64,000 nucleotides of DNA, from positions 7,617 to 71,616 of the forward strand of contig JAZSIR010000001.1 of the NCBI GenBank assembly GCA_045533905.1. Reading direction: 5' to 3'. Below are positions 2,110 to 62,579 of the stretch, piece by piece; positions within the stretch are counted from its first letter, which is position 1, and every line of letters starts with the position of its first letter. Below the pieces are notes generated by a model. That model worked only from the letters and a program-made list of their open reading frames with translations, was not told the DNA's origin and did no database searches. The translations under genes and the position numbers were made by a program. This DNA is from Clostridia bacterium (GTDB taxonomy: Bacteria; Bacillota; Clostridia; UMGS1883; UMGS1540).

Positions 2110-3197
2110 TTAAGATAAATCACTTAAAGAAAGAATATGCAAATGTTACTCCCTTAAAGGATGTAAATGTTCATATTCATAAGGGCGATGTCATTTCTAT
2201 TATTGGTCCTTCAGGCACCGGTAAATCAACCCTTATCAGATGTATCAATATGCTTGAAACTCCCACTTCCGGCGATATTTTCGTTAACGGTGAACGAATT
2301 ACCGACAAAAAATGTAACATAAACAAAATCCGTCAGAAGATGGGTATGGTGTTCCAATCCTTCAATTTGTTTAACCACATGAACATTATTGAAAACATTA
2401 TGGCAGCACCTATGGACTTACTTAAAAAATCAAAGCAGGATGCTTATGACGACGGTATGGAGCTTCTTCGCACAGTTGGTCTTGCAGATAAAGCCTTTAA
2501 CTATCCCGATGAGCTTTCAGGCGGTCAGAAACAGCGTGTTGCCATAGCAAGAGCACTCGCAATGGAACCCGAAATAATACTCCTTGATGAGCCGACATCG
2601 GCGCTCGATCCCACAATGGTCGGTGAAGTTCAGGCGGTAATTAAAGACCTTGCAAAAAAAGGCTTAACTTTAATGATAGTAACTCACGAAATGCGATTTG
2701 CAAGAGAAATTGCAAACAGAGTTTTCTATATGGATGAAGGCGGTGTTTATGAAGACGGAACACCTGAAGAAATCTTCGATAATCCAAAGCGAGAAAAGAC
2801 AATCAGATTTATTAAGCACCTTAAAGTATTTGAAAATCTTATCACCTCAAAGGATTTCGACTTTATAGGCTTTAATACATCTTTAGAAGAATTCGGCAGA
2901 CGAAATCAGGTTCCGCAGGAAACCATTTACCGCGCACAGTCGGTATTTGAAGAACTTGTTGTGCAATGTCTTCTTCCAAAGCTTGAGGAAGAGTTTACTC
3001 TAAGTATTGCCTTTGAATATTCTCAAGATGAAGAAACACTTTCGATGATTATGAAATATGACGGAGAACATTTCGATGTACGAAATACACCTAATGTTAT
3101 TTCGTTTGCTATTGCTGAAAATGCATCAGAAAGCATTGATTATACTGAGTGTAACGACGGTAATTTTACAAACCTCGTGACGGTGAAAATCAAATAA
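2106..3197 (+). CDS. Amino-acid ABC transporter ATP-binding protein (GlnQ-like) with an extra C-terminal domain of about 120 aa
   Basis: Walker A GPSGTGKST, signature LSGGQKQRVAIARAL, Walker B ILLDEPTSALD, H-loop VTHEM. ATGA overlap with the upstream permease. Residues about 241-363 lie beyond a normal NBD. Confidence 0.9.
   Translation: MIKINHLKKEYANVTPLKDVNVHIHKGDVISIIGPSGTGKSTLIRCINMLETPTSGDIFVNGERITDKKCNINKIRQKMGMVFQSFNLFNHMNIIENIMAAPMDLLKKSKQDAYDDGMELLRTVGLADKAFNYPDELSGGQKQRVAIARALAMEPEIILLDEPTSALDPTMVGEVQAVIKDLAKKGLTLMIVTHEMRFAREIANRVFYMDEGGVYEDGTPEEIFDNPKREKTIRFIKHLKVFENLITSKDFDFIGFNTSLEEFGRRNQVPQETIYRAQSVFEELVVQCLLPKLEEEFTLSIAFEYSQDEETLSMIMKYDGEHFDVRNTPNVISFAIAENASESIDYTECNDGNFTNLVTVKIK
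2826..3194 (+). other. RsbW/SpoIIAB-like (GHKL-fold) pseudo-kinase module fused to ABC ATPase 1
   Basis: Hand alignment to the stand-alone kinase at 13992-14402: QSVFEELVVQC vs IDIAIDELFGNI. FTLSIAFEYSQDEETLSMIMKYDGEHFDV vs ATVRVEVTEDPLAVVITFIDNGVPYDP. IDYTECNDGNFTNLVTVKIK vs IAYEYKDGHNILKIKK. It lacks the N-box Asn and the GGLG box. Confidence 0.5.
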
Positions 3198-3209: not shown

Positions 3210-3563
3210 TTGGAACAGTATAATTTTTCAAACAGCAATATTGACCTTGCCTGTGAGGATGTTGGCGTTTTTCTGACATCGGTCGGAGTGGAAAAACGCG
3301 AAGTTTTGCGAAACAAACTCACCCTTGAGGAAATACTCCTTGAATACCAAGCAAAGTTTGGTGAAGAAGCGAACTTTAAGGTAAGATGCGTAAACCGCTT
3401 TATGACCATCAAGGTTGAGTTAATTGTTTCGGGACGGGTTTACAATCCGCTTGAAAAGAACGAGGAAGAAAACATCATACATGGAATTTTGGCAGGTATC
3501 GGTCTTGCCCCCTCATACGGATACAGAAACGGAAAGAATTATATCATTTTCACTCCCAAGAAA
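3210..3563 (+). other. RsbW-like pseudo-kinase module at the N-terminus of symporter 1
   Basis: NIDLACEDVGVFLTSV / KLTLEEILLEY / FKVRCVNRFMTIKVELIVSGRVYNPLEK / YGYRNGKNYIIF are collinear with NIETVTDFVNEQLEAF / IDIAIDELFGNI / ATVRVEVTEDPLAVVITFIDNGVPYDPLAK / YEYKDGHNILKI of the kinase at 13992-14402. Confidence 0.5.
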
Positions 3564-4781
3564 AAACCGTTGTCAAGCACGGTTAAAATGGGTGTGGCGA
3601 TTGGACTTTCGCTCATTTGCGGTTTTTTCCTTAATCTTCTGCCCGATTCAGTTAGAGCAGGTGCAAGCAAATATGTACTTTCGCCTGTGACCGATGCGTT
3701 TATGGGATTGATTTCGGCTGTATCGATTCCGCTGATTTTCTTGTCTGTCCTTGGTAGCATCTGCTCTATGGGCAACATGGAAACTCTCGGCAAAATTGGA
3801 AAAAAGACCATTAAAACTATTCTCCTGTATTTGACGGCGTTCAGTATACTTATGACAGCACTTGGAAGCTTGTTCTTTCACGTACAGTGGGGTGGCGGAG
3901 GAGCATCAGGTTTCTCACAGGTTTTCGATTTGATTTATAACATCATTCCATCGAATATGTTTGAACCTTTTATAACGGGAAATACTCTGCAGCTTATCTT
4001 CATTTCCATTATAGTTGGACTTGCAATGCTTGTCCTTTCGACAAGAGTGAACGGTGTTTTCAAACTTGTCGAACAGTTGGGCGCGATTGTGCAAACAATT
4101 ATGTCAGGACTTTCATCTATGCTGCCGATTTTGATTTTTGTACTCTTTACGGGAATGATATCCGGCGGAGAGTTCGGAACTCTGCTTGATTCTTGGAAGA
4201 TTATTGCAGTTTTCCTGTTGCTCGTTATGGTTTACTATGCAACAACTGTTTTGTACATTGCATTTAATAAAAAAATTTCGCCGGCTTTGCTATTAAAAAA
4301 GACATGGAAGACGCTTATTATTGCTCTTACAACTGCATCTTCTGCTGCGGCATTCCAAAAAAATATTCGCGATTCAAACAAAAAGTTTGGTATTGACAAA
4401 CGTCTCGCGGAATTTGGGGCATCCTTGGGACAAGTGTTGTTCAGCCCTGCTGATGTTGCTATTCTCATTGCAATGGAGGTTGGGTTTGCGGAAATGTATG
4501 GCATTGCGATCACTCCGCAGTTTTTAATCATTGCGTTGATCACGAACCTACTTTTGTCATTTTCCATTCCTCCCGTACCCGGAGGCTCTGTGATGGGATA
4601 CACTATTGCATTCACACAGCTTGGTATTCCTTTGGAGGTTATGGGTGTTGTTCTTGCCTTGGATGCGATCATTGATTTTCCGGCAACAGCGTGCAACATT
4701 TCGGGATGGCAGCTTACAATGATTGAGGTTGCTGACTCGCTCGATATGCTCGATAAAGAAACACTTTGCAAAAAGAGATGA
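3210..4781 (+). CDS. Dicarboxylate/amino-acid:cation symporter (DAACS/SDF family), paralog 1, with an extra N-terminal soluble domain
   Basis: TTG start 6 nt after GAGGTG. Multiple hydrophobic segments. SDF-type motifs TTASSAAAF, PPVPGGSVMGYT, DAIIDFPATACNISG. The first ~118 aa are non-membrane. Confidence 0.85.
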   Translation: MEQYNFSNSNIDLACEDVGVFLTSVGVEKREVLRNKLTLEEILLEYQAKFGEEANFKVRCVNRFMTIKVELIVSGRVYNPLEKNEEENIIHGILAGIGLAPSYGYRNGKNYIIFTPKKKPLSSTVKMGVAIGLSLICGFFLNLLPDSVRAGASKYVLSPVTDAFMGLISAVSIPLIFLSVLGSICSMGNMETLGKIGKKTIKTILLYLTAFSILMTALGSLFFHVQWGGGGASGFSQVFDLIYNIIPSNMFEPFITGNTLQLIFISIIVGLAMLVLSTRVNGVFKLVEQLGAIVQTIMSGLSSMLPILIFVLFTGMISGGEFGTLLDSWKIIAVFLLLVMVYYATTVLYIAFNKKISPALLLKKTWKTLIIALTTASSAAAFQKNIRDSNKKFGIDKRLAEFGASLGQVLFSPADVAILIAMEVGFAEMYGIAITPQFLIIALITNLLLSFSIPPVPGGSVMGYTIAFTQLGIPLEVMGVVLALDAIIDFPATACNISGWQLTMIEVADSLDMLDKETLCKKR

Positions 4782-4790
4782 GGTGGTTAA

Positions 4791-5144
4791 TTGGAACAGT
4801 ATAATTTTTCAAACAGCAATATTGACCTTGCCTGTGAAGAAGTCGGTGAGTTTCTTTCCAAAGTCGGTGTAGAACGACGCGAGGCTCTCCGAACAAAGCT
4901 CACATTTGAGGAAGTATTGCTTGAATACCAATCCAAGTTCGGAGAGGAAGCCACCTTCAAGGTGAGACTTCTGAAACGCTTGTCCTCTATAAAGGTCGAG
5001 ATCATCGTAGAAGGAGAATCCTACAACGCTCTTGTCAAAAACAGCGACGAGGGTGACGTGATACAAGGTCTGCTTGCAGGTATCGGTCTTGCTCCTACTT
5101 GGAATTACAAGAACGGTAAAAATTACATCGTATTTATACCAAAG
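4791..5144 (+). other. RsbW-like pseudo-kinase module at the N-terminus of symporter 2
   Basis: Same block structure as 3210-3563: NIDLACEEVGEFLSKV, KLTFEEVLLEY, FKVRLLKRLSSIKVEIIVEGESYNALVK, WNYKNGKNYIVF. Confidence 0.5.
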
Positions 5145-6365
5145 AAAAAACCGCTGTCCGGCACGGCCAAAATGGTCGGTGCAATCGGACTTGCGGTGAT
5201 TTGCGGAATTATCTTAAATCTCTTGCCAGACGGAATCAGAGCAGGCGCAAACGATTATGTGCTAACACCCGTAACGAATGCGTTTGTGGGACTTATCTCA
5301 GCAGTATCAGGGCCGCTGATCTTCCTATCGGTTCTCGGCAGTATCTGCTCCATGGGCAATATGGAAACCCTCGGCAAGATCGGAAGTAAGACGATTAAGG
5401 TTATCCTTCTTTATATGACGGTAATCGCAGTATTGATGACCGCATTCGGCTGCCTGTTTTATCACATTGAAATGGGTGGCGGAGGGACATCGAGCTTCTC
5501 GCAGATTCTCGATTTGATCTATGACATCATTCCGTCAAATCTGTTTGAACCCTTTGTAACCGGAAATGCTTTGCAGCTGATCTTCATTTCCATCATGGTC
5601 GGACTTGCAATGCTTGTCCTATCGTCGAGAGTCAGTGGCGTGTTCAAGCTCGTGGAACAGCTCAGCTCCATCGTGCAAACGATTATGTCGGGGCTGTCCT
5701 CAATGCTTCCGATTCTGATATTTGTTCTCTTTACGGGAATGATTTCAAGCGGTAACCTTGGTGCAATTCTCGATTCTTGGAAGATGATATTAGTCATCGT
5801 GCTAATGATTGTAGTTTACTACGTACTGAATCTTCTGCGAATCTCCCTTATGAAAAAGATACCGCCGGCTTTGCTGATGAAGAAAGCGTGGCAGACACTT
5901 CTCATTGCACTTACCACCGCATCCTCGGCTGCCGCGTTCGGTACGAACACCCGTGATGCAAACAAAAAGCTTGGTATTGACAAAAAGCTTGTTGAGTTCG
6001 CAACTCCCATCGGTCAGGTATTGTTTATGCCCGGATATGTCGCCATGCTTTTTTGTATGGAAATGGGCTTTGCGGAATCCTACGGTCTTCCGATTACTCT
6101 ACCGTGGATATTTATCGCTCTTATCACAAATCTTTTGTTATCATTTGCAGTCCCGCCCGTGCCCGGTGGTGCAATGATGGGATTTACGATTGCTTTTACA
6201 CAACTCGGCATTCCTATGGAGGTTATGGGTATTGCGTTGGCGGTGAACGCTATCATTGATTTCCCCTGTACAGCCTGCAATGTTTCAGGATGGCAGCTTA
6301 CTCTTATTGATGTTGCTGACTCACTTAATATGTTGGATAAAGAATCATTACATAAAAATAATTAA
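4791..6365 (+). CDS. DAACS/SDF-family symporter, paralog 2 (tandem duplicate of 3210-4781), with the same N-terminal extra domain
   Basis: Collinear with paralog 1 over its full length. Same TTG start context. Motifs TTASSAAAF, PPVPGGAMMGFT, NAIIDFPCTACNVSG. Confidence 0.85.
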   Translation: MEQYNFSNSNIDLACEEVGEFLSKVGVERREALRTKLTFEEVLLEYQSKFGEEATFKVRLLKRLSSIKVEIIVEGESYNALVKNSDEGDVIQGLLAGIGLAPTWNYKNGKNYIVFIPKKKPLSGTAKMVGAIGLAVICGIILNLLPDGIRAGANDYVLTPVTNAFVGLISAVSGPLIFLSVLGSICSMGNMETLGKIGSKTIKVILLYMTVIAVLMTAFGCLFYHIEMGGGGTSSFSQILDLIYDIIPSNLFEPFVTGNALQLIFISIMVGLAMLVLSSRVSGVFKLVEQLSSIVQTIMSGLSSMLPILIFVLFTGMISSGNLGAILDSWKMILVIVLMIVVYYVLNLLRISLMKKIPPALLMKKAWQTLLIALTTASSAAAFGTNTRDANKKLGIDKKLVEFATPIGQVLFMPGYVAMLFCMEMGFAESYGLPITLPWIFIALITNLLLSFAVPPVPGGAMMGFTIAFTQLGIPMEVMGIALAVNAIIDFPCTACNVSGWQLTLIDVADSLNMLDKESLHKNN

Positions 6366-6384: not shown

Positions 6385-6681
6385 ATGACTATCGAAAAAA
6401 ACTTAAACGGAACCGAACTGACAGTTGCCATTGTTGGCAGACTTGACACAACAACCGCACCTGAACTTGAAGCATCTTTAAAAGAAAGCTTTACTGGTGT
6501 AGAAAAACTTGTGCTTGATTTTGCTTCACTTGAGTATCTTTCTTCTGCAGGACTTCGTGTTCTTCTGGCGGCTCAGAAGGCAATGAACAAGCAGGGCGAA
6601 ATGATTATTAAGAATGTAAACGAAACCATCAATGAAATCTTTGAAGTAACGGGATTTATTGATATTTTGACAATCGAATAA
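6385..6681 (+). CDS. STAS-domain anti-sigma-factor antagonist (SpoIIAA/RsbV-like), copy 1
   Basis: 98 aa of typical STAS length. Phospho-serine loop LEYLSSAGLRVLL. RBS AGAGG 9 nt upstream. Confidence 0.85.
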   Translation: MTIEKNLNGTELTVAIVGRLDTTTAPELEASLKESFTGVEKLVLDFASLEYLSSAGLRVLLAAQKAMNKQGEMIIKNVNETINEIFEVTGFIDILTIE

Positions 6682-6701
6682 TTGCTTAGGGAGGGCTTTG
6701 T

Positions 6702-7595
6702 ATGCCGAATTACGATTTTTTGCTTGAGCATAAGCTGAAGGAACTGAATAGTGAGTTTGCATATCGGCATACCTGCTGTATGTCACTTTTTGAGCAAATG
6801 CTGAAAAGGTTTCTCGCCGTATTCCCAACATTTACCGATCATACACTCCTACATACTTTGAGTGTGACAAACATATCAAACCAACTGCTTCGTGAAAATG
6901 TTATGAAATTAAATGCAAGCGAGATATACATATATCTTATGGCGTGTGCTTTGCATGATATTGGAATGGGTGTTTCGGACAAGGACATTGGCTCATTTAT
7001 TGATGCATCCGGTCTCAGAGGATATGTAAACGAACATCCTGAAATATCTAAGCCTAATTTGATACGCAAATTTCACAACGATTTTTCAGCACAGTTTGTA
7101 AAAAAGTATTGGGAGATACTTGAGATACCAAATAAGCGGTATGCTGATGCGATTGCTGAGGTCGGACGAGGGCACAGAAAGACGGATTTGATGGATGAAG
7201 CACTTTATCCTACAGATTACGAACTTGGTGACGGAAGCAAAGCGAATCTTGCCTTGCTTGCGGCACTTATACGACTTTGCGATGAGCTTGATATAGCATC
7301 GGACAGAAACCCTGATTTGCTGTATGATACCGAAACTATGGAGGGTATGAGCGAGAAGGATGTATTTGAGTTTTCCAAGCACGAGGCTATCCATACGCTA
7401 AAGTTTAGTGAGGATAATATTGTGGTTATTGCTGACACAGATAAACCGGATATTGCCGATGGAGTTATAGAGGCGATCCGTACTGTTAAAGAAACTCTTG
7501 AATATTGTCTTTCTGTAATCAGCAAACGTAGTGATTTTCAAATTGATTGCGAAACAATAAAACTGATATTAAATGATAAAGAAGTAGAGGTGTAA
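6702..7595 (+). CDS. HD-domain metal-dependent phosphohydrolase
   Basis: H...HD...D ligand pattern (DHTLLHTL, CALHDIGM, RLCDELD). No further family assignment is possible by eye. Confidence 0.65.
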   Translation: MPNYDFLLEHKLKELNSEFAYRHTCCMSLFEQMLKRFLAVFPTFTDHTLLHTLSVTNISNQLLRENVMKLNASEIYIYLMACALHDIGMGVSDKDIGSFIDASGLRGYVNEHPEISKPNLIRKFHNDFSAQFVKKYWEILEIPNKRYADAIAEVGRGHRKTDLMDEALYPTDYELGDGSKANLALLAALIRLCDELDIASDRNPDLLYDTETMEGMSEKDVFEFSKHEAIHTLKFSEDNIVVIADTDKPDIADGVIEAIRTVKETLEYCLSVISKRSDFQIDCETIKLILNDKEVEV

Positions 7596-7599
7596 AAAT

Positions 7600-8313
7600 A
7601 TGGCAACTGCACATATAAATGCAAAACCGGAGGATTTCGCAAAAACGGTGCTTATGCCCGGCGATCCTCTCCGCGCAAAGCTGATCGCGGAAAAATATCT
7701 TGAAAACGCTGTACTTGTAAATAATGTCAGAGGCGTTCAGGGCTATACGGGTACATATAAGGGCAAACGAGTGTCCGTTATGGCGAGTGGTATGGGAATG
7801 CCGTCAATGGGTATTTATTCTTATGAGCTTTACAAGTTTTTCGGAGTAGAAAACATTATTCGTATTGGTTCAGCAGGTGCTCTTAATACCGATATTTATG
7901 TTCGTGATGTTGTAATCGGTATGGGTTGTTCTACTGATTCCAATTTTGCGGCAAATTACAAGCTTCCCGGAACTTTTGCTCCACTTTGCAGCTACAAACT
8001 GATGGACGCTTGTGTTGAAAGTGCAAAAGAAATGGGTGTAACATATCACGTGGGCAACCTTCTTTCGTCAGATATTTTCTATGGTGATGACGAAACGGCA
8101 AACGACGCCTGGGCAAAGATGGGTGTTATGGCAATAGAGATGGAGGGTGCGGCACTTTATATGAATGCTGCGCGTCTTGGCAAAAACGCCCTTGTTATTT
8201 GTACCGTATCCAATCACATAATCACGGGCGAGGAAACTACTGCTGAGGAAAGACAGAATTCCTTTGGTGAAATGATTACATTGGCACTTGAAACCGCCTT
8301 GAAGTTAGACTGA
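7600..8313 (+). CDS. deoD: Purine nucleoside phosphorylase, DeoD type
   Basis: 237 aa. N-terminus HINAKPEDFAKTVLMPGDPLRAK, plus RIGSAGAL and AIEMEGAALY, all characteristic of hexameric PNP. Confidence 0.9.
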   Translation: MATAHINAKPEDFAKTVLMPGDPLRAKLIAEKYLENAVLVNNVRGVQGYTGTYKGKRVSVMASGMGMPSMGIYSYELYKFFGVENIIRIGSAGALNTDIYVRDVVIGMGCSTDSNFAANYKLPGTFAPLCSYKLMDACVESAKEMGVTYHVGNLLSSDIFYGDDETANDAWAKMGVMAIEMEGAALYMNAARLGKNALVICTVSNHIITGEETTAEERQNSFGEMITLALETALKLD

Positions 8314-8327
8314 CGGAGGGGGTACTG

Positions 8328-8966
8328 ATGGTAGAAATATTGAAGGGACTTGGCATCACCGTTTTTCTGACTGTTGCATGCTTTATAACAGCATCCTTGA
8401 TTGGAGCATTAACTTGTGCCGGCTTTTGCTCTAAAAACAAAATAGTCAGAACGGTATGCAAGATTTATAATGGCTTGGTGATTAAGATTCCTCCGCTCGT
8501 TATGTTAATGCTTTTCGCATTAGTCGTTATGGGCGACCGTAATAAAGGAACTATATTTATTGCTTTTGTAGGACTGTCTCTTTTTGTTGCAGCAAATCTT
8601 ACCGGTGTTTTCTGTGGCGGTGTTTTTTCCGTTGCAAATGGAGAAATTGAAGCGGCTCGCACGTTGGGAATGAACAAGATTCAAACATTTTTTCATGTTA
8701 TGTTACCTCAGATAATTGAAAACATTGTTCCGGTATATATGTCAATGTTTGTGATGTGTATGCAGATTACAAGTGTGGCATCCGTTATTGGAGTAGGTGA
8801 ATTTCTTAGCGTAACCGATGGTATTTCCGATGCTGTAATTGGAATTGTGATTTCGATTTCAGGTTATTTTGTTATTGGAACACTCGGTGATTTCGTTATC
8901 ACCCGTATAGGAAAGATAAAACATATTAAAGCAAAGGATTATCCTGGAAAGGCGGAGGTGAGATAA
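8328..8966 (+). CDS. Amino-acid ABC transporter permease (no adjacent binding protein)
   Basis: 212 aa, hydrophobic, with EAA loop EIEAARTLGMNKIQTFFHVMLPQ. Immediately followed by an ATPase gene. Confidence 0.8.
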   Translation: MVEILKGLGITVFLTVACFITASLIGALTCAGFCSKNKIVRTVCKIYNGLVIKIPPLVMLMLFALVVMGDRNKGTIFIAFVGLSLFVAANLTGVFCGGVFSVANGEIEAARTLGMNKIQTFFHVMLPQIIENIVPVYMSMFVMCMQITSVASVIGVGEFLSVTDGISDAVIGIVISISGYFVIGTLGDFVITRIGKIKHIKAKDYPGKAEVR

Positions 8967-8967
8967 G

Positions 8968-10059
8968 ATGAGTCTTGTAGAAATAAAAAATCTTACCAAG
9001 CGTTTCGGAGATAATCTTATTTGGGAGAATGTCAACGAATCTATCGAAAAAGGCGATGTGATAGTTATTGTCGGTAACTCGGGTTGCGGAAAGACAACTT
9101 TCCTTCGGTGTATCAATATGCTTGAAACACCTTCATCCGGTCAGATTTTCATTGATGGTGATGAAATAACTGCAGTCGGTGCTGATATTGATAAAATTCG
9201 CAGTAAAATGGGTATGGTGTATCAGAATTTCAATTTGTTCTCACATCTTACTGTACTTGAAAACATTATTAAGGCACCAATGGTGGTTAATAAGATTCCC
9301 AAGGAGCAGGCAATCAAGGAAGGTATGGAATATCTTCGTATGGTAGGTATGCAAGAGAAAGCAGATTTTATGCCCGATCAGCTTTCGGGCGGACAGAAAC
9401 AGCGTGTGGCAATTGCCCGTTGTCTTGCTATGAAGCCTGAAATCATTCTGTTTGACGAACCGACAAGCGCACTTGATCCTACAATGGTGGATGAGGTTCT
9501 TGCGGTTATTAGAAATCTTGCTAAGAGTGGGTTCACTTGTGTAATTGTAACCCACGAAATGGCATTTGCTAAAAGTGTGGCAAGTAAAATCATCTTCTTT
9601 GCTGACAGAGGAATTTATGAGGAGGCACCGCCTGTTGAGTTTTTTGAGCATCCCAAAAGAGAAAAAACAGTTGCCTTTGTTCGCAAACTCAAGACCTATA
9701 CCTACGAGTCTGAGGTTTGCAATATCGATCTTTATACACTTTTAGTTCAGGTCAACAATTATTGTAGTAAATATGCATTTCCGCTTAAATCTGCAAACCG
9801 TTTTCAATTAGTAGTGGAAGAACTTTTAACCTGTTTGCAAAGTATTGGCGGAGATGGCGAGATGAACTTGACTGTGGCGTATGAAGATACCACAGGCAAA
9901 AAAGAAATTATTTTGCGCGAAAAAGTGTGTAAGGGAAATATACTTGATGCGGAGCAGATGGACGAACTGAGTCTGATGCTTATTAAGAACTGTGCATCCG
10001 ATATTAAGCACTGCGTTGAAAACGGATATAATGTATTAACAATTGAAATAAAAGAATAG
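8968..10059 (+). CDS. Amino-acid ABC transporter ATP-binding protein, paralog 2, with the same extra C-terminal domain
   Basis: Walker A GNSGCGKTT, LSGGQKQRVAIARCL, ILFDEPTSALD, VTHEM. 363 aa, the same length as 2106-3197. Confidence 0.9.
   Translation: MSLVEIKNLTKRFGDNLIWENVNESIEKGDVIVIVGNSGCGKTTFLRCINMLETPSSGQIFIDGDEITAVGADIDKIRSKMGMVYQNFNLFSHLTVLENIIKAPMVVNKIPKEQAIKEGMEYLRMVGMQEKADFMPDQLSGGQKQRVAIARCLAMKPEIILFDEPTSALDPTMVDEVLAVIRNLAKSGFTCVIVTHEMAFAKSVASKIIFFADRGIYEEAPPVEFFEHPKREKTVAFVRKLKTYTYESEVCNIDLYTLLVQVNNYCSKYAFPLKSANRFQLVVEELLTCLQSIGGDGEMNLTVAYEDTTGKKEIILREKVCKGNILDAEQMDELSLMLIKNCASDIKHCVENGYNVLTIEIKE
9688..10056 (+). other. RsbW-like pseudo-kinase module fused to ABC ATPase 2
   Basis: NIDLYTLLVQVNNYCS / QLVVEELLTCL / MNLTVAYEDTTGKKEIILREK / IKHCVENGYNVLTIEIK are collinear with the kinase at 13992-14402. 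No N-box Asn and no GxGxG box. Confidence 0.5.
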
Positions 10060-10082
10060 AATTTTCGGCAAGTGAGGTTTTT

Positions 10083-11771
10083 ATGAAACGATTGTTGTAT
10101 GGCGGTACGGTTGTTAATGTGTTCACAGGCGAGCTTGAGCAAACGAACGTGCTGATAGAAAAAGATAAAATTGTAGGTGTTGGTGCATATTCTCCCGATG
10201 ATGCGGATATGACCGAGGATATTACAGGAAAGTACATATGCCCCGGATTTATTGACGGTCATATTCACATTGAAAGCACGATGTTGACACCCTCAGAGCT
10301 TGCAAGACTGTGTATGCCTCACGGAACTACCGCAATCGTTGCCGATCCTCACGAGATTGCCAATGTATGCGGTATGGATGGCATCAAATATATGATGGAA
10401 GCAAGTAGCGGTATCCCTCTCTCGGTTTATTTTACATTGCCTTCCTGCGTTCCCGCAACACCGTTTGATGAATCGGGTGCGGTGCTTGAGGCGGACGATA
10501 TCAGACCACTGTACGAAAACAAGCGAGTTGTAGGACTTGCCGAAATGATGAACTATCCCGGAGTTCTCCTTGGAACGAGCGATGTGTATAACAAAATCGG
10601 TGATGCAATAGAACACGGAAAAGTCATTGATGGCCACGCCCCCTTCTTGTCAGGAAAAGAACTTGATAAATACATTTGTGCAGGTATTACGAGTGACCAC
10701 GAGTGCTCGGATGTGGGTGAAGCGATAGAAAAAATCAGAAAAGGTCAATGGGTGATGATTCGCCAAGGAACGGCTGCTCGTAACCTTGCAGAGCTATTGC
10801 CATTGTTTGATGATGCTTATAGCCATAGATGCGTTCTTGTCACCGATGACCGTCATCCCGCAGACCTTATAAGAGACGGACATATTGATAATATCATCCG
10901 TCTTGCCGCCCGAGGCGGGAAATCAGTTATTACGGCAATTAAAATGGCTACGATACAGGCAGCTCAGTGCTTCGGTTTGCGATTCGTTGGGGCTGTTGCT
11001 CCCGGTTACCGTGCAGATCTTCTTGTACTAAACGACCTTAATGCAGTTGATATTGAAGACGTTTATTCAAAGGGAGAAAAGGTTGTAGAGCGAGGGCAAA
11101 TGAAAGCGTTTGACCGTCCCAAAATTGACGGGGGGTTGTGCGAAACAGTACATAACTCGTTCCATACAAAAGAATTGACGATTGCTGATTTTCACATTGA
11201 AGAAAATAGCAACAAATGTCGAGTGATAGAGATTATTCCCGGTCAGCTTCTCACGGGGGAACAAGTGTGTGAGATTGATTGGAGCAAGAGGAACGGCATT
11301 GACACCACGAGAGACATTCTTAAACTCGCGGTTATTGAAAGACACAAAAACACAGGTCATATTGGACTTGGCTTTATTAAGGGTATTGGAATAAAAAATG
11401 GTGCTATTGCATCCTCCGTATCTCACGATTCACACAATATTATTGTGATTGGCTCAAATGACGAGAATATGGTGATTGCCGCAAATAACATCCGTAAGAA
11501 TGGTGGTAATGTAGTTGTTTCTGCCGGAAAGATTATTGCCGACATGGCATTGCCGATAGCAGGTCTTATGACCAATCTTTCAGGCGAGGAAATTGCCCTT
11601 GCCAATGAAAATGTACGCAAAGCCGTGTATGAGCTTGGCGTGTCGAGGAATATCGAACCTTTTATGAATATGGCGTTTGTGAGTCTGCCTGTAATTCCGT
11701 CACTCAAAATGACGACGCAGGGGCTTGTGAACGTAGATAAACAAGAAAGAATATCGCTTTACTGCGATTAA
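10083..11771 (+). CDS. ade: Adenine deaminase
   Basis: 562 aa. Amidohydrolase HxH motif in GFIDGHIHIESTMLTP. Length and layout match the adenine deaminase family. Confidence 0.85.
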   Translation: MKRLLYGGTVVNVFTGELEQTNVLIEKDKIVGVGAYSPDDADMTEDITGKYICPGFIDGHIHIESTMLTPSELARLCMPHGTTAIVADPHEIANVCGMDGIKYMMEASSGIPLSVYFTLPSCVPATPFDESGAVLEADDIRPLYENKRVVGLAEMMNYPGVLLGTSDVYNKIGDAIEHGKVIDGHAPFLSGKELDKYICAGITSDHECSDVGEAIEKIRKGQWVMIRQGTAARNLAELLPLFDDAYSHRCVLVTDDRHPADLIRDGHIDNIIRLAARGGKSVITAIKMATIQAAQCFGLRFVGAVAPGYRADLLVLNDLNAVDIEDVYSKGEKVVERGQMKAFDRPKIDGGLCETVHNSFHTKELTIADFHIEENSNKCRVIEIIPGQLLTGEQVCEIDWSKRNGIDTTRDILKLAVIERHKNTGHIGLGFIKGIGIKNGAIASSVSHDSHNIIVIGSNDENMVIAANNIRKNGGNVVVSAGKIIADMALPIAGLMTNLSGEEIALANENVRKAVYELGVSRNIEPFMNMAFVSLPVIPSLKMTTQGLVNVDKQERISLYCD

Positions 11772-11804
11772 AAATAATAATAATTTAGAAAGAGGTAATT
11801 TATA

Positions 11805-12101
11805 ATGACTATCGAAAAGAACTTAAGCGGTACAGAACTTAATGTAAAGGTGTCAGGCAGACTTGACACAACAACCGCACCGGAACTTGAAGCAGAAGTT
11901 ATGGGCGCAATCTCAGGTGTAACAAAACTTGTACTTAACTTTGAAGCACTTGAGTACCTTTCATCTGCAGGACTCAGAGTACTGCTTCAGGTACAAAAGA
12001 TAATGAACAAGCAGGGTGAGATGATTATTAAGAACGTAAACGAAACAATCAATGAGATTTTTGAAGTAACAGGATTCATTGATATTCTGACGATTGAATA
12101 A
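11805..12101 (+). CDS. STAS-domain anti-sigma-factor antagonist, copy 2
   Basis: 98 aa paralog of 6385-6681. Same LEYLSSAGLRVLL loop. The last 32 aa are identical to copy 1. Confidence 0.85.
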   Translation: MTIEKNLSGTELNVKVSGRLDTTTAPELEAEVMGAISGVTKLVLNFEALEYLSSAGLRVLLQVQKIMNKQGEMIIKNVNETINEIFEVTGFIDILTIE

Positions 12102-12144
12102 GGTGAACTCCAATGAACCAAACAAGTATTGGAGGGATATACCT

Positions 12145-13995
12145 ATGAAACCAAAAAAGCAAACAAGCATTTCCTACAACTTCCTAAAATGGCTCTTATT
12201 CTTGATGCTCGTCGCCTTTATTGCCACAACCGTGTTCCTGTGGGTATTCCAAACACGACTCGCAAACAACAATGCCGACAATCTCTTGCGGTTGAACATC
12301 ACTGATGTCAAGGCAGACATAAAAGACGCCACCAACGACCATATGCTTGAGATCGTTCGCAACATATCGGCAGAGCTTGACGATATAGATGCAGATACCG
12401 CATCAGAAGAAGAAATGAGTGCACGAATTGCGGAAATGCTCACACGGTACGATGTAACGGAGATTGATATTATCAACAGTAAAGGTATCATCGTGGCGTG
12501 TAATATCGAATCTTTCGTCGGCTTCGATATGGCATCGGGCGAGCAATCCAAAGAGTTCTTGGTGTTGCTCGAAGGCGAAAAGGAAATGGTGCAGGAATTT
12601 CAAGCTCAGTCCTATGACAGCTCCATTGAGCGTAAGTATGCAGGCGCATCGCTTACAAACGGCGGTCTTGTGCAGATTGGTTATGACTACGCGCATTTGC
12701 AGGCGAGCGTTGACCACGAGGTTGTTTCGCTCACCCGTAACCGTCACGTGGGCAACAACGGACGAGTTCTGATTGTTGACCAAGATAAAAACATTGTCAG
12801 CAATGTCAAAGGAATTGACCGTAAAAAACTTGATTTAGAAGCGTTCGGAATAAAACCCGGCTCTGTTCAATCAGGACAACGTGTTACCGCAAACGTAGAG
12901 GGTGTTGATTTCTACTGTATGGCAGAAATGGCCGAAGGCTACTACATTATATCCGCAATACCGGTTAAAGAAGTAACCATCACACGAAATATGGTTGTCA
13001 TTATGGCAGTTGCGGTTGAAATGCTGATATTTATTGCCCTGACGCTTCTTGTCTATCTTTTGATAAAGAAACAGATCGTCGTCAGCGTGAACCGTATCAA
13101 CCATTCGCTATCGGAGATCACAAACGGAAACCTTGATGTTACGATGGACGTGCGTAACAATTTGGAATTTGACTCACTTTCCAACGACATCAACGCAACG
13201 GTAGATACTTTGAAGCGGTACATCAAGGATGCAGAAGAACGCATCGACGCAGAGCTTGCCTTTGCAAAAGCCATTCAGCACTCGGCGTTGCCGTCTGTAT
13301 TCCCGCCTTATCCGAATAGAAAAGAGTTCGAGATCTTCGCCACGATGCACACGGCAAAAGAGGTTGGCGGTGATTTCTACGATTTCTATTTTGTAGACGA
13401 AGATAACCTTGCGTTCTTGATAGCAGACGTATCCGGCAAGGGTGTCCCTGCGGCAATGTTTATGATGCAATCCAAGACCATCATCAAGAGCTGTGCCGAG
13501 TCGGGCATGAGCGTTGAGCAGGTATTCACCGTTGCCAACGAAAAGCTCTGCGAGGGCAATGATGCAGGTATGTTCGTTACCGCCTGGATGGGTATTCTGA
13601 ATACCAAAACCGGCAAGGTACTCTTTGCCAATGCCGGACATAACCCGCCTCTTGTCAAACACGCAGACGGTACATACGAATATCTCAAATCCCGTGCAGG
13701 TTTTGTGCTTGCAGGTATGGAGGGTGTTCGCTACCGCAAGAATGAAGTTGAGCTTGCACCCGGTGATGCGATTTATCTCTACACCGACGGTGTTACCGAA
13801 GCAACCGATCTGAACACCGAGCTTTACGGAGAAGATCGTCTGCATATCGTTCTTGAAAAATACAAAGATGCAGCACCGCAAGTGATCTGTGATGAAGTCA
13901 AAAAGGATGTAGACGCCTTCGTCGGGGAAGCTCCGCAGTTTGATGACATTACAATGCTTGCGCTGAAATACTACGGGAAGGAGGATGCACAATGA
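12145..13995 (+). CDS. Membrane sensor PP2C/SpoIIE-family serine phosphatase (RsbU-like): TM, extracytoplasmic domain, TM, HAMP-like linker, PP2C
   Basis: ATG at 12145 lies 8 nt after GGAGGG; the track ORF starts earlier at a TTG. Two TM segments flank about 270 aa. PP2C motifs GGDFYDF, ADVSGKGVPAA, TDGVTEA, FDDITML. Confidence 0.85.
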   Translation: MKPKKQTSISYNFLKWLLFLMLVAFIATTVFLWVFQTRLANNNADNLLRLNITDVKADIKDATNDHMLEIVRNISAELDDIDADTASEEEMSARIAEMLTRYDVTEIDIINSKGIIVACNIESFVGFDMASGEQSKEFLVLLEGEKEMVQEFQAQSYDSSIERKYAGASLTNGGLVQIGYDYAHLQASVDHEVVSLTRNRHVGNNGRVLIVDQDKNIVSNVKGIDRKKLDLEAFGIKPGSVQSGQRVTANVEGVDFYCMAEMAEGYYIISAIPVKEVTITRNMVVIMAVAVEMLIFIALTLLVYLLIKKQIVVSVNRINHSLSEITNGNLDVTMDVRNNLEFDSLSNDINATVDTLKRYIKDAEERIDAELAFAKAIQHSALPSVFPPYPNRKEFEIFATMHTAKEVGGDFYDFYFVDEDNLAFLIADVSGKGVPAAMFMMQSKTIIKSCAESGMSVEQVFTVANEKLCEGNDAGMFVTAWMGILNTKTGKVLFANAGHNPPLVKHADGTYEYLKSRAGFVLAGMEGVRYRKNEVELAPGDAIYLYTDGVTEATDLNTELYGEDRLHIVLEKYKDAAPQVICDEVKKDVDAFVGEAPQFDDITMLALKYYGKEDAQ

Positions 13996-14402
13996 AAGAA
14001 CTAACCATTGCCGCAACAGTAGAAAACATTGAAACTGTAACGGACTTCGTAAACGAACAGCTTGAAGCGTTTGATTGCCCTATGAAAGCACAGATGCAGA
14101 TCGACATTGCCATCGACGAGCTTTTCGGCAACATTGCGCACTATGCGTACAATCCCGATGTAGGAGAAGCGACCGTTCGCGTGGAGGTTACCGAAGATCC
14201 TCTTGCCGTGGTAATCACCTTTATTGATAACGGCGTACCTTACGATCCTCTTGCAAAAGCCGAGCCCGACACAACGCTTTCCGCAGAGGAAAGAGACATC
14301 GGTGGTCTTGGCATCTATATGGTGAAGAAGTCTATGGACGACATTGCCTATGAATACAAAGACGGACACAACATTTTGAAAATCAAGAAGAATTTGAATT
14401 AA
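13992..14402 (+). CDS. Anti-sigma regulatory factor-type Ser/Thr kinase (RsbW/SpoIIAB-like, GHKL ATPase)
   Basis: 136 aa. N-box DELFGNIAHY, G1-like IDNGVPYDP, G2 GGLGIYMV. ATGA overlap with the phosphatase gene. Confidence 0.8.
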   Translation: MKELTIAATVENIETVTDFVNEQLEAFDCPMKAQMQIDIAIDELFGNIAHYAYNPDVGEATVRVEVTEDPLAVVITFIDNGVPYDPLAKAEPDTTLSAEERDIGGLGIYMVKKSMDDIAYEYKDGHNILKIKKNLN

Positions 14403-14415
14403 AGGATTATTGCAA

Positions 14416-16602
14416 ATGAAGAACTTAAACAAAAAACTTTTGACCTTCGGTATAGTTTTGTGTATGCTTCTCTCGTGTTTTTCGGGAGTGGTATTTGCAA
14501 AGGATATCGAAACAATCGTTATTCTTTATGAAAACGATGTTCATTGTGCAGTAGAGGGTTATTCTAAACTTGCAGCAATGAAAAATGAATTATCAGAAGA
14601 TTATGAATATGTAGGCGTTGTATCCTCCGGCGACTTTGTTCAGGGCGGAACTCTTGGTGCAGTTTCTCGTGGTGAATACATAGTAAGCCTTATGAACCTT
14701 GTGGGATATGATGCCGTAACACTTGGTAATCACGAATTTGATTATAAGCTCCCACGCCTTGATGAACTTGCAGAATTGATGAACACCGAACCTATCTCTT
14801 GTAACTTTCAAAAGATAGGTGAAACTGAATCATATTTTGAGCCGTATTCCATCGTAACCTACGGTGATGTGGATATAGCATATATCGGTATCACAACACC
14901 ATCTACATTGTCCTCATCGTCACCTGCACAGTTTAAGGGTGAAAATGGTGAGTATATTTACACATTCAATGTAGATACCCTTTACGATGTGGTACAGGCA
15001 AGTATTGATTCTGCAAAGGAAGATGGTGCTGATTACATAATCGCCCTTTCTCATATTGGATATGAAGAAGATGAGCAGTATGAGGATGTTGTTGACTTAA
15101 TTGAAAACACATACGGATTTGATGTTGTTCTTGATGCTCATTCTCACTCTGTTATTGAAAATATGAAGCTGACCGATGAGGGCGGAAATGAGGTTGTTCT
15201 TACCTCAACAGGCACAAAGTTTGAAAATATCGGCAAGCTTACAATTTCAGGCGGTGAGATAACAACAGAGCTTATAGAAACTGAGAACTACACAAACACA
15301 GATACAACCGTTGATGCAAAACTTGCGGAAATAAACGAAGCATATTCTGCTCTCGGTAATCGCAAGATTGGTGAAAGCGAAATAGAGCTTATCACGAACG
15401 ATGCGGACGGAAACCGCCTTGTTAGGACAACAGAAACCAATCTCGGCAATTTGTGTGCAGATGCAATTAAAACAGTAACGAAAGCTGATATTGCCTATGT
15501 AAACGGCGGCGGAATCCGTGCACCGATTGAAATTGGCGAAGTATCGTTCAATGACATTTTTAGTGTTTTTCCATTTAACAATCAGATTGTTGTAGCAGAA
15601 ATGACAGGTCAGAAAATACGCGATATGCTTGAAATGTCACTTATGAATTATCCGGCAGAAGATGGCTCTTTCCCTCATGTTGCAGGACTAACATTTTCGG
15701 TTAATAAATCCATTCCAACATCTGTTAAAACAGACGAAAACACAGTTTTTACAGGCGTTGACGGTGAGTATAGAGTTTATGATATTAAAGTATTAAATGA
15801 AGACACAGGCGAATACGAGCCTATTAAACTCGACGGAACATACTCCTTTGCAAGCTTCAACTACTTTGTTTTAGACCAAGGCGGCGGTATGAGTATGTTT
15901 GACGGTGTAAAAATATTAAAGAATGACGGAATGCTTGATGTTGAAGCGTTAGAAACATACATCACAGAAAACCTTGGCGGTGTTATCGGCGAAGAATATG
16001 CAGAGGTAGATAACAGAATCAACTTTACAGACGGTGAAGATGCACTTAATAAGTTCACCGATTTGTCCGATGATGCTTGGTATAGTGATTCTGCAAAGTA
16101 TGTTTTGGAAAACGGTCTTATGAAAGGCGTAACAGATACCACCTTTGCACCAAACGAAAACTTAACAAGAGCAATGCTTGTTACAGTTCTTTACCGTGCA
16201 GAAAATGAACCTGCCACAAACCGCAGCATTCCTTTCTCTGATGTTGATACGGGTGCTTACTATGCAAGTGCAGTTTCTTGGGCAAAGCAGAACGGTATTG
16301 TAAACGGTGTAACAGAAACAGAATTTGCACCGAATGACAATATCACCCGTGAACAGATTGCGGCAATTATGCACAGATACGCACAGTACAAGGGTTATGA
16401 TGTCAGCGTAGGAGAAAACACAAATATTCTTTCCTATGACGATTTTGACAGCATTTCCGAGTATGCAATAGCTTCTATGCAGTACGCTTGCGGCAGCGGC
16501 TTGATTAAGGGTAAATCAGAAAGCACCCCCAATCCGCTTGATAATGCTACAAGAGCAGAAATAGCAGCAATACTTCACAGATTTATTGAAGTGAATAAGT
16601 AA
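14416..16602 (+). CDS. Secreted 5'-nucleotidase/metallophosphoesterase anchored by three C-terminal SLH domains
   Basis: Signal peptide MKNLNKKLLTFGIVLCMLLSCFSGVVFA. Calcineurin-like motifs GDFVQGG and GNHEFD. C-terminal SLH repeats (FTDLSDDAWY..., FSDVDTGAYY..., FDSISEYA...). Confidence 0.85.
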   Translation: MKNLNKKLLTFGIVLCMLLSCFSGVVFAKDIETIVILYENDVHCAVEGYSKLAAMKNELSEDYEYVGVVSSGDFVQGGTLGAVSRGEYIVSLMNLVGYDAVTLGNHEFDYKLPRLDELAELMNTEPISCNFQKIGETESYFEPYSIVTYGDVDIAYIGITTPSTLSSSSPAQFKGENGEYIYTFNVDTLYDVVQASIDSAKEDGADYIIALSHIGYEEDEQYEDVVDLIENTYGFDVVLDAHSHSVIENMKLTDEGGNEVVLTSTGTKFENIGKLTISGGEITTELIETENYTNTDTTVDAKLAEINEAYSALGNRKIGESEIELITNDADGNRLVRTTETNLGNLCADAIKTVTKADIAYVNGGGIRAPIEIGEVSFNDIFSVFPFNNQIVVAEMTGQKIRDMLEMSLMNYPAEDGSFPHVAGLTFSVNKSIPTSVKTDENTVFTGVDGEYRVYDIKVLNEDTGEYEPIKLDGTYSFASFNYFVLDQGGGMSMFDGVKILKNDGMLDVEALETYITENLGGVIGEEYAEVDNRINFTDGEDALNKFTDLSDDAWYSDSAKYVLENGLMKGVTDTTFAPNENLTRAMLVTVLYRAENEPATNRSIPFSDVDTGAYYASAVSWAKQNGIVNGVTETEFAPNDNITREQIAAIMHRYAQYKGYDVSVGENTNILSYDDFDSISEYAIASMQYACGSGLIKGKSESTPNPLDNATRAEIAAILHRFIEVNK

Positions 16603-18959: not shown

Positions 18960-19051
18960 TCTTTTAGTTTTTGTTTAATATTTGTCTGGATATATTAAGT
19001 TATTTGTGGTATTGTTGTCTTGAAAAAAATATGGAAAGGAGTGTGAGGCTG

Positions 19052-21457: not shown

Positions 21458-21459
21458 AG

Positions 21460-23467: not shown

Positions 23468-23507
23468 CTTATTTTTCTATTTGCTTTTTCACAAGGCTTT
23501 CGTCCCA
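23461..23507. repeat. Direct repeat copy A: imperfect duplicate of the acyl-CoA synthetase 3' end (candidate att/integration-site sequence)
   Basis: On the minus strand, GAAAGCCTTGTGAAAAAGCAAATAGAAAAATAAgaaaaagg compares with copy B GAAAGCCTCGTAAAAAAGCAAATCGAGAAATAAgaaaagg. There are 4 substitutions, all synonymous, and 1 indel. Confidence 0.8.
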
Positions 23508-62398: not shown

Positions 62399-62579
62399 CT
62401 TTTGCCCCTCCAAATTCGCTTGTTACACTTATTATACACCCCAAAATCAAATATGCAAGTGAAAACACGTAAAAAAACAATGAAAACTCGCATATTTTGC
62501 GACATCTCCTGCAAAAAGACCTTGCGACGCTTTTTAAAATATGATAAAATAAATGTATACCTAAGAAAGAGGGATAAAT

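Follow-up and report, generated by a model that had tools for sequence, protein, structure and literature searches.

We analysed a stretch of 64,000 nucleotides from a Clostridia bacterium (assembly GCA_045533905.1, contig JAZSIR010000001.1, positions 7,617 to 71,616; hereafter the window), in which two paralogous genes for small STAS proteins lie within a 16.6-kb array of co-directional genes. STAS1 (6385–6681, + strand) and STAS2 (11805–12101, + strand) each encode a single STAS domain of 98 amino acids (aa), as seen from the translated open reading frames (ORFs) and from matches to the Pfam family STAS (PF01740; E = 9.7e-16 and 57.9 bits for STAS1, E = 1.6e-15 and 57.2 bits for STAS2, with a cut-off of 22.6 bits). 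STAS1 is of the generic family type, and STAS2 belongs to a narrow, derived clade. STAS2 is followed by the genes for a phosphatase and a kinase, the three being contiguous from 11805 to 14402, and STAS1 is located 5.1 kb upstream in the same array. The phosphatase (12145–13995, + strand) is a membrane sensor protein of the dCache_1-HAMP-SpoIIE/PP2C type (Pfam SpoIIE 2.1e-51, HAMP 3.8e-05, dCache_1 0.001) and presumably acts on the phosphorylated STAS proteins. Its mechanically called ORF starts at a TTG at 12094 and overlaps the end of STAS2; the ATG at 12145, with a GGAGGG 7 nucleotides (nt) upstream, is the likelier start and agrees with an identical metagenome locus in which the gene is called at 616 aa (L087; loci from other assemblies are given L numbers throughout). 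The kinase gene (13992–14402, + strand; Pfam HATPase_c_2 4.1e-22) encodes an RsbW-type serine kinase, presumed to act on the STAS proteins, and the stand-alone RsbW class to which it belongs keeps the N-box Asn, the DxG of the G1 box and the GGLG of the G2 box. Among the ORFs scanned in the array there was no Pfam match to a sigma factor, a negative that covers the operon only.

By sequence, the two small proteins are SpoIIAA/RsbV-class STAS proteins of the phosphorylatable type. Searches of the Protein Data Bank (PDB) matched 4HYL (1e-13), SpoIIAA in 1TH8 (6e-9) and RsbV in 6M36 (6.5e-8), so that the nearest relatives of known structure are SpoIIAA and RsbV, along with a STAS protein from Haliangium in which the SSAGLRVLL motif recurs. 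When STAS2 was aligned with SpoIIAA, S54, the second serine of LSSAG, fell opposite the phospho-serine Ser58 in both 1TH8_B and 1AUZ_A, and S53 opposite Asp57; STAS1 has the same LEYLSSAGL block and hence the same putative phospho-serine S54, which was invariant in an alignment of 36 sequences. An AlphaFold2 (AF2) model of STAS2 (predicted local distance difference test score, pLDDT, 93; predicted template modelling score 0.81) predicts the canonical STAS order of strands and helices, with beta1 at residues 2–8, beta2 at 11–20, alpha1 at 25–35, beta3 at 41–45, a short strand at 49–52, alpha2 at 54–70, beta4 at 72–76 and alpha3 at 80–89. Alpha2 begins at residue 54 in this model, which places S54 at its N-terminus.

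Four transporter proteins of the operon carry an additional domain that resembles RsbW. Two of them are tandem SDF (DAACS-type) symporters, 72% identical to each other, with the domain at the N-terminus: symporter 1 (3210–4781, + strand) matches Pfam SDF (3e-61) only over residues 129–502 and carries the RsbW-like domain in residues 1–116 (nt 3210–3557), and symporter 2 (4791–6365, + strand), directly 5' of STAS1, carries it in residues 1–117 (nt 4791–5141). The other two are ABC ATPases of 363 aa each, 43% identical to one another, with the domain at the C-terminus. In ATPase 1 (2106–3197, + strand; Pfam ABC_tran over residues 17–165) it spans residues 241–362 (nt 2826–3191), and in ATPase 2 (8968–10059, + strand) residues 243–361 (nt 9694–10050). 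Profile comparison with hhalign related the SDF N-domain to RsbW (97.7%, E = 2e-12) and the ABC C-domain to RsbW (94.4%, E = 8e-8), to the SDF N-domain (95.7%) and, most strongly, to the C-terminal domain of MatE transporters found in other loci (99.0%, E = 2.6e-18), which itself matched RsbW at 98.3%; control comparisons of the transporter domains with STAS gave at most 1.2%. The ABC C-domains were also recovered by an iterated hidden Markov model (HMM), and the un-iterated RsbW HMM matched the MatE tails (E = 3e-10). When the AF2 model of the N-domain of symporter 1 was compared with known folds using Foldseek, the top matches were UsfX in complex with RsfB (8IH8), SpoIIAB (1L0O and 1TIL) and RsbW (6M36), with template modelling scores of 0.6–0.7; a PDB sequence search with the same domain returned nothing meaningful, and a word-indexed homologue search with the C-domain of ATPase 2 alone found one protein. 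In the class consensus of both the SDF N-domains and the ABC C-domains the N-box Asn, the G1 Asp and the G2 glycines are lost, and the transporter-borne copies are therefore RsbW-like pseudokinase domains and not kinases.

The same association recurs elsewhere. In other loci the gene after STAS encodes a MATE transporter of 557–624 aa whose tail matches Pfam HATPase_c_2 at 2e-10. Related loci also have an EamA protein of 603 aa with an RsbW-like tail, and solute-binding protein–permease–ABC fusions of 1132–1196 aa with the same domain. At least one transporter with an RsbW-like domain was found within the available DNA of 64 of 85 sources (84 fetched loci and the window), and clustering at 50% identity gave 426 representatives of the SDF N-domain family in a set of 1.84 billion proteins, most of the family members being about 520–545 aa long. 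The transporter partners that the initial annotation had suggested for the STAS proteins are thus plausible, given that four transporter proteins of the operon appear to bear domains of this kind.

Several other proteins were noted beside these. A plain MatE protein of 459 aa is encoded in the high-GC part of the window (61034–62413, − strand) and is too short to include an RsbW-like tail of about 120 aa, providing an internal contrast. In many loci RsbW is followed by a pair of ABC exporters of about 730 aa (for example, L004 5855–10719), the first of which has an N-terminus that looks C39-peptidase-like by eye; RsbW-like domains were considered in these exporters too and rejected, their C-termini being without a match (0.3%). 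Proteins of 392 aa that adjoin partner-switch genes (L008 12391–13569, L034 12872–14050, also L029 and L078) have an N-terminal STAS domain with an ISSAGLRV motif, fused to what by eye resembles a kinase-like domain of the aminoglycoside-phosphotransferase type.

We compared the two STAS genes with each other. The proteins share 79 of 98 residues and the genes 230 of 297 nt including the stop codon, and all 19 amino-acid differences fall within residues 8–66. Residues 67–98 (MNKQGEMIIKNVNETINEIFEVTGFIDILTIE) are the same in both proteins despite 11 silent codon differences, as are residues 49–61 (LEYLSSAGLRVLL), where 8 codons differ silently; the five residues between these blocks read AAQKA in STAS1 and QVQKI in STAS2, three of them being different. 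An identical run of at least 32 residues would arise by random placement of 19 differences with p = 0.004. The initial annotation had pointed to this shared C-terminus of 32 residues and its silently diverged DNA, and both the observation and the three DNA examples it quoted (codons 71–73, 77–81 and 89–92) proved correct. Over codons 67–98 the proportion of silent differences (pS) is 0.62 (11 differences at 17.7 silent sites) and that of replacement differences (pN) is 0; about 49 replacement differences would be expected at the 78 replacement sites without constraint on the protein, and none was observed. Codons 49–98, with 20 differences at 30 silent sites (pS 0.61–0.63), are near saturation and constitute the most silently diverged part of the pair. 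Over the whole gene the estimated silent divergence (dS) is about 0.9 and the replacement divergence (dN) 0.15, and we therefore regard STAS1 and STAS2 as an old pair. Given that silent sites in the C-terminal half are near saturation and that the same residues are near-invariant in hundreds of homologues, the C-terminal identity is held by purifying selection and not by recent gene conversion, which the high silent divergence of that half rules out as its source.

To a large extent, the pattern of identity and difference between the two proteins is the ordinary constraint map of their family. Searches with either protein returned at least 8000 matches each, nearly all of the best 120 being exactly 98 aa long, and at least 387 stretches encode a relative when one genome per species is counted. 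The hosts are mostly uncultured Oscillospiraceae, Acutalibacteraceae, Lachnospiraceae and other Clostridia of animal guts, with odd bin labels such as Alistipes and Comamonas among them. Among 296 distinct 98-aa sequences, the 19 positions that differ between STAS1 and STAS2 have a mean column entropy of 1.69 bits, against 0.35 bits for the other 79 (p = 7e-10), and the difference persisted when the comparison was restricted to distant homologues, that is, those with at most 76 residues identical to either paralogue (1.76 against 0.68 bits, p = 8e-6). Near-invariant even in the most distant members are GRLDTTTAP, LEYLSSAGLRV, QK.MNKQG and most of NVNETI.EIFEVTGF.D.LTIE. We also counted changes by parsimony on a tree of 76 homologous genes and expressed them as the ratio of replacement to silent change (Kn/Ks), which was 0.35 for codons 1–17, 0.10 for codons 18–30, 0.35 for codons 31–48, 0.06 for codons 49–61, 0.21 for codons 62–66 and 0.13 for codons 67–98. 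The segmental differences in constraint anticipated by the initial annotation are therefore present among the orthologues (Kn/Ks 0.06–0.35 by segment). The differences towards the N-terminus are not peculiar to this pair: the variable positions are hypervariable columns of the whole family with Kn/Ks below 1. No codon in the 76 genes exceeded a Kn/Ks of 1, the maximum being 0.86 at codon 37, so that the variable segment reflects relaxed purifying selection across the family and not detectable positive selection. By itself the pattern of the paralogues is unremarkable and reveals where the surface of a small switch protein is constrained.

Among codons that encode the same residue in both genes, 7 of 24 silent sites differ in the N-terminal half and 20 of 30 in the C-terminal half (p = 0.013), and STAS1 compared with its cross-genome relative in L003 shows the opposite trend, with 22 of 29 silent sites different in the N-terminal half and 8 of 32 in the C-terminal half (p = 1e-4). 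At codons 18–30 (6436–6474 and 11856–11894) the paralogues differ at 1 of 39 nt; at the same codons STAS1 differs by 6–8 nt from the more distant STAS1-type genes (L003, L005, L006, L012 and L009), although L081a, the ortholog nearest to it, differs by 2 nt. We considered a short conversion tract here and set it aside, the scan statistic within the pair not being significant (p = 0.41) and significance being confined to the cross-genome incongruence. Because silent divergence is mosaic between the two halves, recombination has shaped this gene family, and for the conserved N-terminal blocks the silent sites suggest recombination. The earlier claim that identity reflects selection on the protein and not gene conversion is accordingly sound for the C-terminal half, with its silent divergence and family-wide conservation, and probably fails to extend to the conserved blocks of the N-terminal half, given the mosaic there. 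Complete C-terminal identity is particular to the lineage of the window: in L081, a metagenome relative with the same gene order, six of the final 32 residues (74, 75, 76, 83, 92 and 94) are not shared by the STAS1-type and STAS2-type copies.

STAS1 resembles the family consensus, and its orthologues are always found between an SDF transporter and an HD-CE gene (L081, L003, L006 and L012). The STAS2 clade is narrow, with 32 distinct sequences among the matches listed and L001 as its sole member among the 80 genome loci kept; the identical STAS2 protein occurs on at least 15 metagenome contigs. This clade has a signature of K15, V16, S17, V32-M-G-A35, S37, T40, N45, E47 and Q62. Within it, K15, V16, V32-M-G-A-I36, T40, N45, E47 and Q62 are invariant or nearly so, and positions 8, 13, 63, 66, 74–76, 83, 92 and 94 change, whereas most of the signature positions keep changing in the STAS1-type clade. 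Replacement divergence at the 19 positions is 0.07–0.10 in the STAS2 clade and 0.26 in the STAS1-type clade at comparable silent divergence (pS 0.3–0.5). At 13 positions the two clades have non-overlapping residues, and 12 of these are invariant in the five STAS2-clade genes compared, the exception being position 66 (I or T). In a table in the manner of McDonald and Kreitman (MK-like), the ratio of non-synonymous to synonymous changes was 11 to 2 for fixed differences and 47 to 107 for polymorphic ones (p = 2e-4). Saturation of silent sites and recombination among the genes bias this test, and we take its result as no more than suggestive. Positive selection at these variable positions was rejected, as the parsimony count showed no codon with Kn/Ks above 1. 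The residues of the STAS2 clade are not simply unconstrained, and they constitute the best evidence for the diversified interface proposed in the initial annotation.

We asked where the conserved and variable residues lie relative to known partner contacts. In SpoIIAA, RsbV and SypA, kinase contacts have been assigned to the beta2-alpha1 loop with its two acidic residues, to the beta3-alpha2 loop, which surrounds the phospho-serine and includes an aromatic residue that is conserved, and to alpha3 (PMC10120452). By alignment and model, these elements correspond to the invariant blocks 18–30, 49–61 and 80–91, and this homology mapping agrees with the shared kinase interface that had been suggested from the sequence of the pair. 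The variable residues are found in beta2 (13 and 15–17), in the second half of alpha1 and the following loop (31–37), at both ends of beta3 (40, 45, 47 and 48) and on one side of alpha2 (62, 63 and 66). Position 62 is A in STAS1 and Q in STAS2 and aligns with Arg67 of SpoIIAA, which is a specificity determinant in both the SpoIIE and the SpoIIAB interfaces (Bradshaw laboratory, PMC11418112). With position 62 as the exception, the split of conserved and variable residues by interface appears not to be clean. For the RsbW-like domains, the mapping predicts docking on the conserved face of STAS and not on the variable one.

The array contains several further genes. One encodes a fusion of solute-binding domains and permease (7–2109, + strand; Pfam SBP_bac_3 2.4e-66, BPD_transp_1 8.1e-20), the partner of ABC ATPase 1 in an importer of the amino-acid type. 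Between STAS1 and STAS2 there are, besides ABC ATPase 2, Pfam matches to HD-CE (PF24391; 6702–7595, + strand), a purine nucleoside phosphorylase (7600–8313, + strand), an ABC permease (8328–8966, + strand) and an adenine deaminase (10083–11771, + strand), and the gene order over this interval (6702–11771) is kept in L001, L006, L081 and L082. The HD-CE gene was directly 3' of a STAS1-type gene in all six loci with this arrangement (the window, L081, L003, L006, L012 and L017). The last gene of the array (14410–16602, + strand) encodes a cell-surface 5'-nucleotidase with Pfam matches to 5_nucleotid_C, Metallophos and three SLH domains. In scans for promoters and terminators, counts departed from those of shuffled sequence by no more than about two standard deviations, and the array contained no strong terminator on the + strand. 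Closely related strains vary in what separates STAS2 from the PP2C gene: nothing in the window and in L087, an Acyl_transf_3 protein in L085, L086, L088 and L089, LPG_synthase_C together with EamA bearing an RsbW-like tail in L082–L084, and an extra STAS copy with a tailed MatE in L081. This variation looks cassette-like. The GC content is 0.38–0.46 up to about 26 kb, with 0.39–0.46 for the stretch of the array, and about 0.50 beyond (1–27566 against 27567–64000). In the boundary region lie three serine recombinase genes (18971–20593, 20594–21457 and 21322–23064) and, on the − strand, a gene for a polyvalent protein of 1365 aa with PBECR3 and LPD3 domains (23469–27566). Since the array stands in a low-GC stretch beside a mobile element, it may be part of, or adjoin, a mobile island.

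With slightly more confidence than doubt, we read STAS1 and STAS2 as old paralogues of one phosphorylatable STAS protein in a partner-switching module with the sensor phosphatase and RsbW; the frozen face of this protein probably has many partners, the pseudokinase domains of transporters included. In the mechanism we envisage, the dCache-PP2C protein would sense an extracellular ligand, which would set its phosphatase activity; the ligand may be an amino acid or a purine compound, as the operon encodes a purine nucleoside phosphorylase, an adenine deaminase and a surface 5'-nucleotidase and relatives carry a xanthine/uracil permease. STAS, once dephosphorylated, would use its conserved face to bind the ATP-dead RsbW-like domains that the SDF symporters and ABC ATPases carry and would thereby alter transport, until RsbW re-phosphorylated S54, releasing STAS and switching it off. 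The frozen S54 face consists of the beta2-alpha1 loop GRLDTTT, the LEYLSSAGLR stretch, which reaches the beginning of alpha2, and alpha3 together with the C-terminus, and it probably fits the kinase, the phosphatase and the transporter-fused pseudokinase domains at once; beta2, the second half of alpha1, the ends of beta3 and one side of alpha2 are free to vary. That one face must accommodate so many partners, from kinase and phosphatase to a number of receptor domains, would also account for its unusual conservation. Both paralogues would share most partners, and the fixed residues of STAS2, position 62 among them, may shift its preference, such that STAS1 and STAS2 probably differ quantitatively in the partners they prefer. 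From the sequences, the homologies, the constraint map and the gene association we infer phosphorylation, binding and the direction of control.

Beyond this, and with rather less assurance, we propose an undescribed output of partner switching, in which a free and very strongly conserved phospho-STAS protein of 98 aa, controlled by the ligand-sensing dCache-PP2C protein and by RsbW, would dock on ATP-dead RsbW-like domains. Transporters of four architectures or more, among them SDF, ABC importer ATPases, MATE and EamA, would each have gained such a domain in a separate fusion, and STAS2-like paralogues, whose alternative beta2/alpha1/beta3/alpha2 surface is fixed, would split the control into channels. 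In relatives, STAS2 precedes a receptor-bearing MatE or EamA, neither of which is present in the window. A number of points weigh against our main reading. The ABC C-domain was missed by the un-iterated RsbW HMM, so that its assignment leans on profile and transitive evidence, and the model of the symporter 1 N-domain (pLDDT 73) is of moderate confidence, being built on a shallow alignment of 6 sequences that includes the RsbW of the window. The docking face is assigned by homology only, and a single, broadly compatible face leaves the fixation of variable residues in STAS2 unexplained. A sigma factor may be encoded elsewhere in the genome, and horizontal transfer or mis-binning may account in part for the conservation across taxa and the odd bin labels.

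The model of the initial annotation takes the conserved half as the interface for kinase and phosphatase and lets the diversified N-terminal and alpha2 residues direct STAS1 and STAS2 to different transporters. The fixation of the STAS2 signature at the clade-separating positions, the low replacement change at the 19 positions in that clade and the excess of fixed replacements in the MK-like table are what this model would lead one to expect; position 62 aligns with a residue that determines specificity in SpoIIAA, the silent backbone of the N-terminal half is more alike between the paralogues than that of the C-terminal half, which makes the variable patches islands of divergence, and in relatives each transporter cassette tends to bring its own STAS gene. 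Yet the same positions vary throughout the family at Kn/Ks below 1, the MK-like table suffers from the biases noted above, and, among about 90 STAS genes, the alpha1 sequence did not track the class of the neighbouring transporter, so that we discarded the notion of a code linking alpha1 to the adjacent transporter. What lies downstream of a gene with the STAS2 signature differs among strains (PP2C, MatE, EamA or an acyltransferase), the window has no receptor-bearing MatE or EamA for STAS2 to serve, and in loci such as L020 and L042 a single STAS gene is found with both SDF-borne and ABC-borne receptor domains within the fetched DNA, which argues against a strict rule of one STAS per target. 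Of the idea that the variable face chooses the transporter, the fixed signature and position 62 weakly favour a role for that face, the correspondence with the neighbouring transporter drops out, and the model as a whole seems to us unlikely. Still less probable is concerted evolution by gene conversion as the origin of the C-terminal identity, to which we give almost no weight. Recombination does occur in the family, as the mosaic silent divergence and the close similarity of the paralogues at codons 18–30 indicate, but the within-pair scan at those codons was not significant, the C-terminal residues are conserved family-wide, and for codons 49–98, the most silently diverged of the pair, conversion is refuted.

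Two further explanations concern the direction and the end point of signalling. The flow may be the reverse of the one we favour, with the RsbW-like domains serving as sensors that make the transporters transceptors, capturing or releasing STAS according to substrate load and so tuning how much free STAS reaches RsbW and an output elsewhere; the paralogues would then buffer stoichiometry. The gene association and the ATP-dead domains fit this equally, the stand-alone RsbW with its intact kinase motifs could hold a further partner as anti-sigma factors do, and RsbW-PP2C fusions occur in many loci. Since no candidate output, be it a sigma factor or another RsbW partner, was found in the array, and the dCache-HAMP phosphatase already provides an input domain, we consider reverse flow a distinctly poor prospect. 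A canonical anti-sigma switch, in which both STAS proteins are redundant antagonists of RsbW, the sigma factor is encoded elsewhere and the transporter extensions are uninvolved, would be consistent with the classical trio of STAS, intact RsbW kinase and PP2C, and multiple antagonists of one anti-sigma factor are known, for example Chlamydia RsbV1 and RsbV2 (PMC11619594). It nevertheless makes it hard to understand why, beside this STAS family, RsbW-like domains have repeatedly become fused to transporters of four or more architectures, and no sigma gene was found in the operon; we hold it to be very improbable.

Partner switching is understood mainly as a means of sigma-factor release, and the role of orphan STAS/RsbW/PP2C sets that lack a linked sigma factor is largely unknown. 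If transporters are indeed the targets, this locus would offer a testable answer, namely that the anti-sigma-like domain is built into the target proteins themselves. It would imply post-translational control of nutrient uptake and efflux in gut Clostridia and, more broadly, a widespread mechanism by which the uncultured Clostridia that abound in gut and rumen rapidly adjust efflux and the transport of amino acids and purines, and would explain the unusual conservation of the STAS family by a single face for many partners. STAS1-type and STAS2-type proteins would also be natural variants for the mapping of specificity.

The notable result is thus the system around the two genes, which homology of sequence and structure together with gene association would class as a variant of partner switching. 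Its components are standard parts of such switches. We did not find a literature description of transporter-fused RsbW-like domains under STAS control, a review of single-domain STAS proteins included, nor one of several transporter families bearing the partner domain beside a free phospho-STAS, its kinase and a sensor phosphatase; a prior description is possible. The module resembles the Bacillus SpoIIAA-SpoIIAB-SpoIIE and RsbV-RsbW-RsbU switches in its single-domain STAS protein with a serine aligned to Ser58, in the adjacent GHKL kinase with intact ATP motifs and in the PP2C phosphatase, and conservation in STAS again falls on the elements of kinase contact. It departs from them in its two STAS paralogues, in a membrane-bound phosphatase with dCache and HAMP sensor domains, in the additional ATP-dead RsbW-like domains on transporters, and in that the scan of the operon found no sigma gene. 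With 65–98% identity across bins assigned to several Clostridia families, this STAS family is also much better conserved than the 'highly divergent' STAS sequences of which the single-domain STAS review speaks.

Paralogous antagonists have precedents. In Mycobacterium tuberculosis, RsfA and RsfB provide multiple antagonists for one anti-sigma factor, and the paralogues of this pair, like those of Chlamydia RsbV1/RsbV2, are far more divergent from each other than STAS1 and STAS2. The UsfX-RsfB complex is the structure (8IH8) that our fold search matched. As in RsbV1/RsbV2-RsbW-RsbU of Chlamydia (PMC11619594) and RsfA/RsfB-UsfX, two STAS paralogues of the window would serve one kinase or anti-sigma protein; the paralogues of those systems have distinct roles, and the Chlamydia system includes a sensor phosphatase. 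Both systems are discussed as sigma-factor control, with no transporter-borne receptor domains described. Phospho-switches of STAS proteins that reach beyond sigma release are represented by SypA/SypE of Vibrio fischeri, where SypA is proposed to bind another partner via the same face as the kinase (PMC10120452), and by the Hep-layer module of Anabaena (bioRxiv 10.64898/2026.04.08.717354), although the targets there are unknown or are not transporters, and no fused pseudokinase receptor domains have been described for either.

Two other STAS systems are linked to transporters. Our scan of the array with Pfam detected no Mla genes, and we did not assign STAS1 and STAS2 to the MlaB type. MlaB binds the nucleotide-binding domain of its transporter directly, and no RsbW/PP2C pair is known to switch it. 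In MlaB-MlaF (PMC7367683), a small STAS protein acts post-translationally on the cytoplasmic ATPase of a transporter, as we propose here; unlike there, the presumed docking site in the window is a separate RsbW-like domain on the ATPase, which is also present on secondary transporters. The SLC26/SulP transporters with their C-terminal STAS domain likewise link STAS-type signalling physically to membrane transport. Compared with them, the topology here is inverted, with the transporter carrying the RsbW-like partner domain and the STAS protein being free and of the phosphorylatable type.

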